DNA of 1,996 bases from Escherichia coli (GTDB taxonomy: Bacteria; Pseudomonadota; Gammaproteobacteria; Enterobacterales; Enterobacteriaceae), in NCBI RefSeq assembly GCF_003334405.1, contig NZ_QOWM01000041.1; one strand, 5' to 3'. Below the pieces are notes generated by a model, which was given only the letters and a program-made list of their open reading frames with translations, searched no databases and had not been told where the DNA came from. The position numbers and the translations under genes are program-made. Below, in pieces: positions 1-1,376 of this stretch (positions within the stretch are counted from its first letter, which is position 1; each line of letters opens with the position of its first letter).

Positions 1-810
1 AACCAGATGGACCCGGTGTACACGCCGGCGCGAAAAATCCACCTGTACCACTGCGACCATCGCGGCCTGCCGCTGGCGCTTGTCAGCACGGAAGGGGCAA
101 CAGAATGGTGCGCAGAATACGATGAATGGGGCAACCTGCTGAATGAAGAGAACCCGCATCAGCTGCAGCAGCTTATCCGCCTGCCGGGGCAGCAGTATGA
201 TGAGGAGTCCGGCCTGTATTACAACCGCCACCGCTATTATGACCCGCTGCAGGGGAGGTATATCACTCAGGATCCGATTGGGCTGAAGGGGGGATGGAAT
301 TTTTATCAGTATCCGCTGAATCCGGTTCAGTATATAGATTCAATGGGACTGGCATCAAAATATGGACACTTAAATAATGGCGGATATGGAGCGAGACCCA
401 ACAAACCGCCTACGCCCGATCCAAGTAAATTGCCGGACATAGCGAAACAATTAAGACTGCCATATCCTATTGACCAGGCCAGTAGTGCGCCTAATGTTTT
501 CAAAACATTCTTCAGAGCATTAAGCCCTTACGACTACACACTGTATTGCAGGAAGTGGGTAAAACCAAATCTGACTTGTACGCCACAGGATGATTCCCAG
601 TATCCAGGGATGGATACAAAGACAGCAAGTGATTACCTGCCACAGACAAATTGGCCAACAACTCAATTACCACCAGGATATACTTGTGCAGAACCCTATT
701 TATTCCCAGACATTAATAAACCCGATGGGCCAGCAACAGCAGGGATAGATGATTTGGGTGAAATTTTAGCTAAGATGAAACAGAGAACATCGAGAGGAAT
801 AAGAAAATGA
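1..810 (+). CDS. ybfO: Rhs-family protein, 3' portion only (5'-partial; reading frame is open from base 1, so the ATG at 7 is an internal Met). Contains the end of the RHS repeat-associated core and a 152-aa variable C-terminal (CT) toxin domain of unknown activity; possibly an orphan Rhs core-CT fragment
   Basis: Translation carries the hallmark end-of-core motifs of Rhs proteins: [76 protein letters not shown] is at nt 226-246, DPIGL at 271-285 and the terminal DSMGL at 337-351. Composition switches from GC-rich to AT-rich at about nt 290-350, as expected at an Rhs core/CT junction. Stop TGA at 808-810. The symbol is from memory of the K-12 RhsC-region gene order and was not verified by search. 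Confidence 0.9.
223..351 (+). other. Rhs core/CT boundary: putative aspartyl-protease autoprocessing region ([21 protein letters not shown] ... [10 protein letters not shown]), with predicted release of the CT domain after Leu115 (nt 349-351)
   Basis: Seen in sequence: two D-x-x-G-L motifs 22 residues apart, DPIGL (aa 89-93 of the ORF-track numbering) and DSMGL (aa 111-115). Established knowledge: in Rhs and Tc-toxin RHS cages a PxxxxDPxGL motif marks the C-terminal autoproteolysis site, and the variable toxin domain starts immediately after it. The conserved Pro is replaced by Ser here. Confidence 0.7.
352..810 (+). other. Variable C-terminal (CT) toxin domain of the Rhs protein, 152 aa, Pro-rich, 3 Cys, no motif I can assign to a known toxin family
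   Basis: Sequence downstream of the DSMGL motif is AT-rich and shows none of the core consensus, as expected for a polymorphic-toxin tip. I could not find HNH-type, PD-(D/E)xK-type or deaminase-type motifs by eye. Confidence 0.6.
792..798 (+). promoter_or_regulatory. Shine-Dalgarno (GAGAGGA) for the immunity gene, lying inside the 3' end of the Rhs CT coding sequence; indicates translational coupling
   Basis: Purine-rich GAGG/AGGA core with an 8-nt spacer to ATG 807; start and stop codons overlap. Confidence 0.55.
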
Positions 811-863
811 AAAGAGTTTTGTTCTTTTTGCTGATGATATTTGTTAGTTTTGGTGTTATAGCT
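807..863 (+). other. Signal peptide of the putative immunity protein (aa 1-19, predicted SPase I cleavage after VIA)
   Basis: KR at positions 2-3, then a 13-residue hydrophobic stretch [13 protein letters not shown], then small residues at -3 and -1 (V-I-A). Not a canonical lipobox because Asp sits at -1 relative to Cys21. Confidence 0.6.
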
Positions 864-1376
864 GATTGCGAAATACAAGCTAAAGATCATGATTGTTTTA
901 CTATTTTCGCTAAGGGTACTATTTTTTCCGCGTTTCCTGTCTTAAATAATAAAGCCATGTGGAGATGGTATCAGAATGAGGACATCGGTGAGTATTATTG
1001 GCAAACAGAACTGGGTACATGTAAAAATAATAAATTCACACCAAGCGGGGCGAGACTCTTAATTCGCGTCGGGTCACTACGCCTTAATGAAAATCATGCC
1101 ATCAAAGGAACGTTGCAGGAGTTGATAAATACAGCAGAAAAAACGGCGTTTCTCGGCGATCGGTTTAGAAGTTATATAAGAGCGGGTATCTATCAAAAAA
1201 AGAGCAGTGATCCAGTTCAGTTGTTGGCAGTCCTTGATAATTCAATCATGGTAAAATATTTTAAAGATGAGAAACCAACTTATGCTCGAATGACAGCACA
1301 TCTCCCGAACAAAAATGAGTCTTACGAATGTTTAATAAAGATACAGCATGAACTAATTCGTAGTGAAGAGAAATAA
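807..1376 (+). CDS. ybfC: Putative Rhs immunity protein, 189 aa, with a predicted Sec signal peptide (exported, probably periplasmic)
   Basis: ORF starts at ATG 807 and overlaps the upstream stop by 4 bp (ATGA at 807-810), with a GAGAGGA Shine-Dalgarno 8 nt upstream. This is the classic position of an immunity gene directly 3' of an Rhs CT. N-terminus [19 protein letters not shown]|DC has a basic n-region, hydrophobic core and V-I-A cleavage site; the mature part has 4 Cys. AT-rich like the CT it follows. Stop TAA at 1374-1376. The symbol is from memory of an E. coli K-12 189-aa secreted protein and was not verified. Confidence 0.8.

Follow-up and report, generated by a model that had tools for sequence, protein, structure and literature searches.

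A serine in place of proline in the autoproteolysis motif of an Escherichia coli Rhs toxin tip at the rhsC locus: a probably tolerated variant

The 3′ end of the rhsC locus and its Rhs core

The window (the whole stretch of DNA that was analysed, 1,996 bases long) corresponds to the 3′ part of the E. coli rhsC locus and comprises the end of an Rhs core, a toxin tip of the "ybfO/rhsO" type, ybfC and fragments of ISAs1 (H-repeat) elements, arranged as follows.

1..321, + strand: 3′ end of the Rhs core, GC-rich; the last 107 codons, with the last YD repeats that form the C-terminal plug or aspartyl autoprotease domain
271..285, + strand: first protease motif, DPIGL, canonical, carrying the first catalytic Asp
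322..351, + strand: second protease or demarcation motif, with Pro, Asp, Gly and Leu kept and Ser, not Pro, after the Asp
340..342, + strand: the variant Ser codon, TCA
352..810, + strand: toxin tip of the ybfO/rhsO type, AT-richer, 152 residues plus stop, beginning ASKYG
807..1376, + strand: ybfC (RefSeq annotation), presumed cognate immunity gene, 189 residues
1602-1856: ybfQ, followed by the start of the next ISAs1 copy

In a megablast search of 5,426 complete E. coli genomes, the whole window was 100% identical in many strains. The K-12-type strain ER1709 has the match within its rhsC locus, flanked by kdpFABC/ybfA and ybgA/phrB; there, rhsC and ybfB are followed by the N-truncated ybfO/rhsO orphan (a "RHS repeat-associated core domain-containing protein") and then by ybfC, ybfQ and more ISAs1 (H-repeat) fragments. 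The window is thus a full-length, 100% match to the K-12 rhsC locus (rhs fragment ybfO/rhsO - ybfC - ybfQ - ybfL - ybfD), with a like gene order, and it is also 100% identical to strains that carry the same 3′ end on an intact 1399-residue Rhs protein, without ybfB or the orphan junction; with its 5′ edge inside the core, it is compatible with both arrangements.

The distal part of the window contains a 158-nt direct repeat (1459-1616 and 1839-1996; 95% identity, 380 nt apart), which is the left end of the ISAs1/H-repeat element, present in two copies. The first copy runs into the truncated ybfQ open reading frame (1602-1856, 84 residues), which ends where the second copy starts, at gggaaagatcacgtaacgc. 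This layout suggests that the ISAs1 element end was partially duplicated, in nested or tandem form. A promoter and terminator scan of the window returned 5 sites, against 6.2 expected from shuffled sequence, and so gave no excess and no evidence of an internal promoter of the kind known from Salmonella.

Three family models aligned with the core end. The TIGR03696 match (RHS repeat-associated core domain) covered all 76 positions of the model with residues 40-117 (84.7 bits against a cut-off of 32.5, E 4.5e-24), and Pfam PF03527 (RHS) matched as well. Residues 2-117 corresponded to positions 1146-1261 of the 1261 in NF041261 (RHS_core), with 237.5 bits against a full-length cut-off of 2000 bits, the core in the window being partial. 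The Rhs frame is open to the 5′ edge and the window begins inside the core, so that the in-frame ATG at nt 7, from which the preliminary description had counted D111 and S112, does not mark the true start. Numbered along the intact 1399-residue proteins, the first catalytic Asp is D1221 and the residues of the second motif are D1243 and S1244, with the expected cut at L1247|A1248.

The second motif is usually quoted as PxxxxDPxGL. In the window, its ten codons (nt 322-351, frame 1) are CCG GTT CAG TAT ATA GAT TCA ATG GGA CTG, with the Asp at 337-339, the Ser (TCA) at 340-342, Gly-Leu (GGA CTG) at 346-351 and the Leu itself at 349-351. Frame-1 translation confirmed both the coordinates and the substitution given in the preliminary description, namely, Ser-Met for Pro-x in a terminal motif that reads DSMGL (nt 337-351), together with a canonical DPIGL upstream at 271-285. 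The first catalytic Asp therefore sits in a DPxG[L] motif (DPIGL), the second follows after a spacer of 17 residues (as in other E. coli cores and in P. laumondii Rhs1; 17-18 residues are usual for such sites) and Gly-Leu, from the Gly-Leu/Trp/Phe repertoire, immediately precedes the scissile bond. The one position that departs from the PxxxxDPxGL consensus is the residue right after the second Asp.

Published work gives these residues their roles. In P. laumondii Rhs1, two DPLGL motifs lie 17 residues apart, cleavage depends on the catalytic Asp in the second of them (it is abolished by D1338N) and the shell ends at L1342, with the CT beginning at A1343 (PMC8636562). The two-motif aspartyl-protease site of Tse5 has been written DPXGL-(18)-DPXGL (PMC9637101), and D1141 and D1164 are both required, the cut falling at L1168|I1169 (PMC9637101, PMC10684867). 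Substituting the catalytic aspartates D1324 and D1346 of P. protegens RhsA lowers toxicity (PMC8765631). The background offered earlier for this DNA, with a catalytic Asp in the second motif and a cut just past the Leu, agrees with the Rhs1 and Tse5 data (PMC8636562, PMC10684867). Our literature searches found no mutational data on the motif Pro and no published self-cleavage test of this Rhs protein, and those on ybfO/ybfC function gave nothing relevant.

The tip begins with ASKYG directly past the predicted cleavage site (nt 351|352); it is Pro-rich and has three conserved Cys. The tip family had no match in Pfam, NCBIfam or PADLOC, its AlphaFold2 model was poor (mean pLDDT of 53.5 from a 10-sequence alignment) and YbfC likewise had no family match. 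The toxin stop codon and the ybfC ATG overlap (ATGA, 807-810), an arrangement typical of translationally coupled toxin-immunity pairs. A YbfC homologue (57-93% identity) lies directly 3′ of every tip homologue examined, and an AT-richer variable tip followed directly by a small coinherited immunity gene is the form of a polymorphic toxin-immunity module. The N terminus of YbfC and of all its homologues is hydrophobic and resembles a signal peptide ending ...A(D/T/Y/N)C, which suggests that YbfC may be a periplasmic immunity protein and, hence, that the toxin may act in the periplasm or envelope. In E. coli O157:H7 MB9-1 (6508-7078 of the locus examined, L008), ybfC is annotated as frameshifted while the Rhs gene with the tip is intact; one would not expect this of a producer in which the toxin is active, and it may equally be a sequencing error.

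Orphan and full-length carriers of the tip

The tip (nt 300-810) was present in 3537/5426 complete E. coli genomes, nearly always as one copy, and the K-12-type junction from ybfB to the orphan was present in 2634. Roughly three quarters of tip carriers thus hold the tip as an orphan, on the assumption that this junction always precedes this tip. We used the junction query and the annotation for this purpose because a count of full-length carriers by a 2.3-kb core-plus-tip query had to be dropped, the core alone making up >80% of that query. In an evenly spaced sample of the ranking, 8/29 matches were annotated as a full "RHS element core protein," which is also the RefSeq name of the 1399-residue proteins with the identical 3′ end.

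Four full-length carriers were read: 300709, from the whole-window matches, and E2865, O157:H7 MB9-1 and TUM1886, from the spread sample. Each (WP_061360238.1 in 300709; WP_000015064.1 is the O157:H7 allele) has an uninterrupted 1,399-residue open reading frame that starts MSGKPAARQGD... and ends in the DSMGL motif and the tip found in the window, with 0-5 substitutions in the last 270 residues. In E2865 and MB9-1, the full-length rhs gene is at the rhsC locus. In TUM1886 (L009, 2312-7077), it lies at another locus, beside nikR (an rhsB-type site), with an immunity gene 93% identical to YbfC; the tip and its immunity gene have therefore moved between rhs loci within E. coli. The orphan arrangement, an N-truncated core past the main rhs-immunity pair, was absent from these four strains; K-12-type genomes are the only ones in which the module was seen as an orphan. 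A human gut metagenome encodes a further 1,399-residue Rhs protein, 78% identical, with the motif PVQYIDSAGL, a homologous tip and a YbfC homologue, followed by an orphan of its own. A search of a 5.8-billion-protein set with the tip alone had returned proteins of <=284 residues, as if only orphans existed; we rejected this reading because the matches track the query length and full-length carriers exist.

The preliminary description had held that the Ser would fit a degenerate or orphan module. As an explanation of the Ser, this finds no support, since the same sequence ends an intact 1399-residue Rhs protein in four strains and at two loci.

The Ser codon and the residue after the catalytic Asp

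When the window was compared with the DNA of the main K-12 rhsC gene, the two were near-identical as far as the motif's first Pro codon (about nt 324), beyond which they are unrelated. GC content falls at the motif from about 0.6 (core, 0.56-0.64) to about 0.43 (tip, 0.41-0.47). As the core identity ends at the first Pro codon, DSMGL belongs to the exchangeable tip. In TUM1886 (L009, 10873-10902), an orphan motif, PVQYIDPFGL, matches the window codon for codon over PVQYID and departs from it at the Pro/Ser codon, and some recombination junctions may accordingly lie inside the motif itself.

Homologues of the tip form a small family, at about 70-75% identity, with the following versions of the motif.

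Salmonella enterica (P0011; species from the protein name) and an ENA metagenomic protein (P0008): DSMGL
Phytobacter (L004): DSMGL
an assembly-derived protein (P0009): DSLGL
S. salamae (P0007): DPMGL
a JGI metagenomic protein (P0010): DPKGL
a vgrG-linked metagenomic Rhs protein: DALGL

The first Pro and the Asp, Gly and Leu of the motif were invariant throughout. The Ser codon was TCA in six E. coli loci (L001-L003, L008-L010), in Phytobacter (L004) and in L011, and it was TCG in L007; Ser has thus been kept at a dS of about 0.8-0.9 to E. coli, through a synonymous TCA/TCG change, with neighbouring codons differing freely. The dN/dS of the tip was 0.15-0.25, rising to 0.46 for the DALGL copy, indicating purifying selection. 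The Phytobacter copy of the tip is frameshifted at its 3′ end. Conservation of Ser across genera through a synonymous codon change, in a tip under purifying selection, is a further argument against a degenerate module.

In one metagenomic vgrG-rhs locus (L005/L006), two different tips (7187-7216 and about 10605-10635) both carry DALGL, encoded with GCT and GCG, respectively, and non-Pro motifs can thus apparently cluster in one locus. The main rhs gene there is split into many short open reading frames, probably by assembly frameshifts.

Beyond this tip family, we scored the residue after the Asp in a 1.84-billion-representative library (50% identity) with a query consisting of the core end cut just before the motif, so that the search had no bias towards Ser. 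Of the 76,615 matches at E<=0.001, the best 150 were scored with a motif pattern that left the two residues in question free, yielding 132 motifs from a sample made up of the closest relatives of E. coli cores, many of them fragments. Among these, the catalytic Asp was present in 132/132, and the residue after it was Pro in 114, Ser in 12, Ala in 2 and Val, Phe, Arg or Thr in 1 each. When the tips of the 132 core ends were clustered, they fell into 60 families, 5 with Ser and 10 with a non-Pro residue, and in six of the 60 the same toxin came with Pro in some members and a non-Pro residue in others. We looked among the 132 motifs for a motif residue covarying with Ser and saw none.

In these closest relatives, then, Pro appears as a strong preference (86%) and Ser as its usual alternative; Pro after the second Asp looks to be a consensus preference (114/132, against 12/132 for Ser) and not a defining residue of the site. 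The earlier statement that the Pro is near-invariant was accordingly too strong. The preliminary description had also held that its concern would fall if Ser proved common among functional Rhs proteins with normal processing. Ser is indeed common (12/132) and occurs in intact Rhs genes, for which processing is predicted. Its other suggestion, that of a tolerated variant, fits the position of Ser as the second commonest residue, its occurrence in 5/60 tip families and the six families that mix Pro with non-Pro.

Interpretation and comparison with known Rhs systems

We consider that Asp-Ser is a natural, tolerated and, by prediction, cleavage-competent variant of the enterobacterial Rhs autoproteolysis motif, with a probability of roughly 0.75. 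We favor this reading because both Asp residues, the 17-residue spacing and the Gly-Leu are intact and because the position accepts several residues, Ser has been kept over a long divergence and the motif caps intact toxin-immunity genes. It is from this anatomy, distribution, conservation and selection, all read directly, that we infer cleavage with Ser. In a full-length Rhs shell, the plug would cut after the Leu (nt 351|352; L1247|A1248) and free the 152-residue toxin (ASKYG..., about 17 kDa) inside the cocoon, and YbfC would neutralise the freed toxin in the producer. The Ser is part of the mobile tip module and not of the E. coli core, inherited along with the tip. In K-12-type genomes, the module is parked as an N-truncated orphan behind rhsC-ybfB, where it would be neither processed nor delivered until it recombined onto a full core.

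It is also conceivable, if unlikely, that Ser weakens or abolishes autoproteolysis, such that the tip stays tethered and the module, degenerate as a delivered toxin, survives as an orphan or as an addictive pair. Such a loss would be in keeping with the Pro of the majority (86%), which also occurs in the closest solved Rhs proteins with an unmutated motif, with the K-12-type orphan in about three quarters of tip-bearing E. coli genomes (2634 versus 3537) and with the 3′ frameshift in Phytobacter. Salmonella also expresses its main and orphan tips without the shell, using internal promoters, as toxin-antitoxin modules, and such shell-independent behaviour can keep tips (PMC7043789). Purifying selection on the tip and the immunity gene therefore does not by itself prove cleavage, as toxin-antitoxin behaviour of this kind could maintain tips here too. 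Against a loss of cleavage, every tip homologue keeps the first Pro, Asp, Gly and Leu, and such invariance would be unexpected at a relaxed protease site. Furthermore, five unrelated tip families have Ser, which alternates with Pro inside families, and this tip is carried by intact full-length Rhs proteins of several E. coli lineages (at two loci) and of one divergent species.

About as improbable is a functional tuning by Asp-Ser, in which cleavage would proceed with other kinetics or under other conditions (for example, more slowly, or with the acid-labile Asp-Pro bond lost) and mark a regulatory subclass of tips. Ser is clearly the preferred alternative (12 Ser versus 6 for all others combined) and has persisted despite high synonymous divergence. 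The catalytic Asp of pepsin- and retropepsin-type aspartic proteases, moreover, is followed by Ser or Thr (DTG/DSG). The interchange of Pro and Ser inside the same toxin families, however, suggests near-neutrality, no motif residue was seen to covary with Ser and a single transition turns CCN into TCN, so that the prevalence of Ser could reflect mutational accessibility. In its specific form, in which Asp-Ser tips would be a recurrent subclass (at least 5 tip families) with slower or conditional autoproteolysis compared with Asp-Pro tips, we hold the idea to be slightly less probable still; if it were true, the residue after the catalytic Asp would tune the timing of toxin release within the cocoon. 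That the Ser arose as a sequencing error, or as a mutation private to one strain, can practically be dismissed, because the tip is in 3537/5426 genomes and every E. coli copy read has TCA, including six other E. coli loci, and because Ser recurs in other genera.

With Asp-Ser read as a tolerated variant, this is a known locus with a member of a known family, and its sole departure from the textbook consensus is at a variable position. Its biological importance is small, that of an ordinary polymorphism of a consensus motif in a well-known E. coli Rhs locus. There is, nonetheless, a practical side. A strict DPxG[LWF] pattern has been used to cut Rhs proteins in silico (bioRxiv 10.1101/2024.02.26.582050), and such a pattern would place the cut in this protein 22 residues too early, at the upstream DPIGL. 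Miscutting of this kind could touch roughly one in seven enterobacterial-type tips (18/132 non-Pro). Nor should a non-Pro residue after the Asp serve as a sign of pseudogenisation, as it does not mark a broken gene.

The plug domain in the window is shared with P. laumondii Rhs1/Tre23, P. protegens RhsA, P. aeruginosa Tse5, A. baumannii Tse15 and V. parahaemolyticus RhsP, and it matched the Protein Data Bank sequences of characterised T6SS Rhs proteins at E values of 1e-17 to 5e-25. These effectors and the window have in common two Asp motifs spaced 17-18 residues apart and a cut site that is preceded by G-[LWF] and followed by a variable tip. They differ in the residue after the second Asp: 7q97, 8uy4, 8h8a and Rhs1 (PMC8636562) have Asp-Pro, whereas the window has Asp-Ser. 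Among the five closest solved Rhs sequences, Asp-Pro is present in all three with an unmutated motif (7q97, 8uy4 and 8h8a); in 8h8b, Ala replaces the Asp, and the chain of Tse5 (8cp6_B) stops short of the motif. Cleavage has been demonstrated experimentally for the T6SS Rhs effectors, whereas for the window protein it is predicted from sequence.

Asp-Ser is not confined to this tip. A long Rhs protein of Shigella sonnei and E. coli, with a tip that starts KFHVNGDPSDFNQ..., has it too (PVRFIDSLGL), in intact or near-intact proteins of 1579-1773 residues; its tip is unrelated to that in the window, and its N-terminal region is longer. More distantly, the last YD repeats are homologous to those of the TcC (TccC3 and YenC2) and teneurin YD shells (E values of 1e-6 for TcC and 0.004-0.1 for teneurins). 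TcC shares the aspartyl protease with Rhs proteins, and teneurins are without cleavage altogether (PMC8765631). In teneurins, however, cleavage has gone through loss of the site and not through a change of Pro to Ser, whereas the protein encoded in the window keeps both Asp residues.
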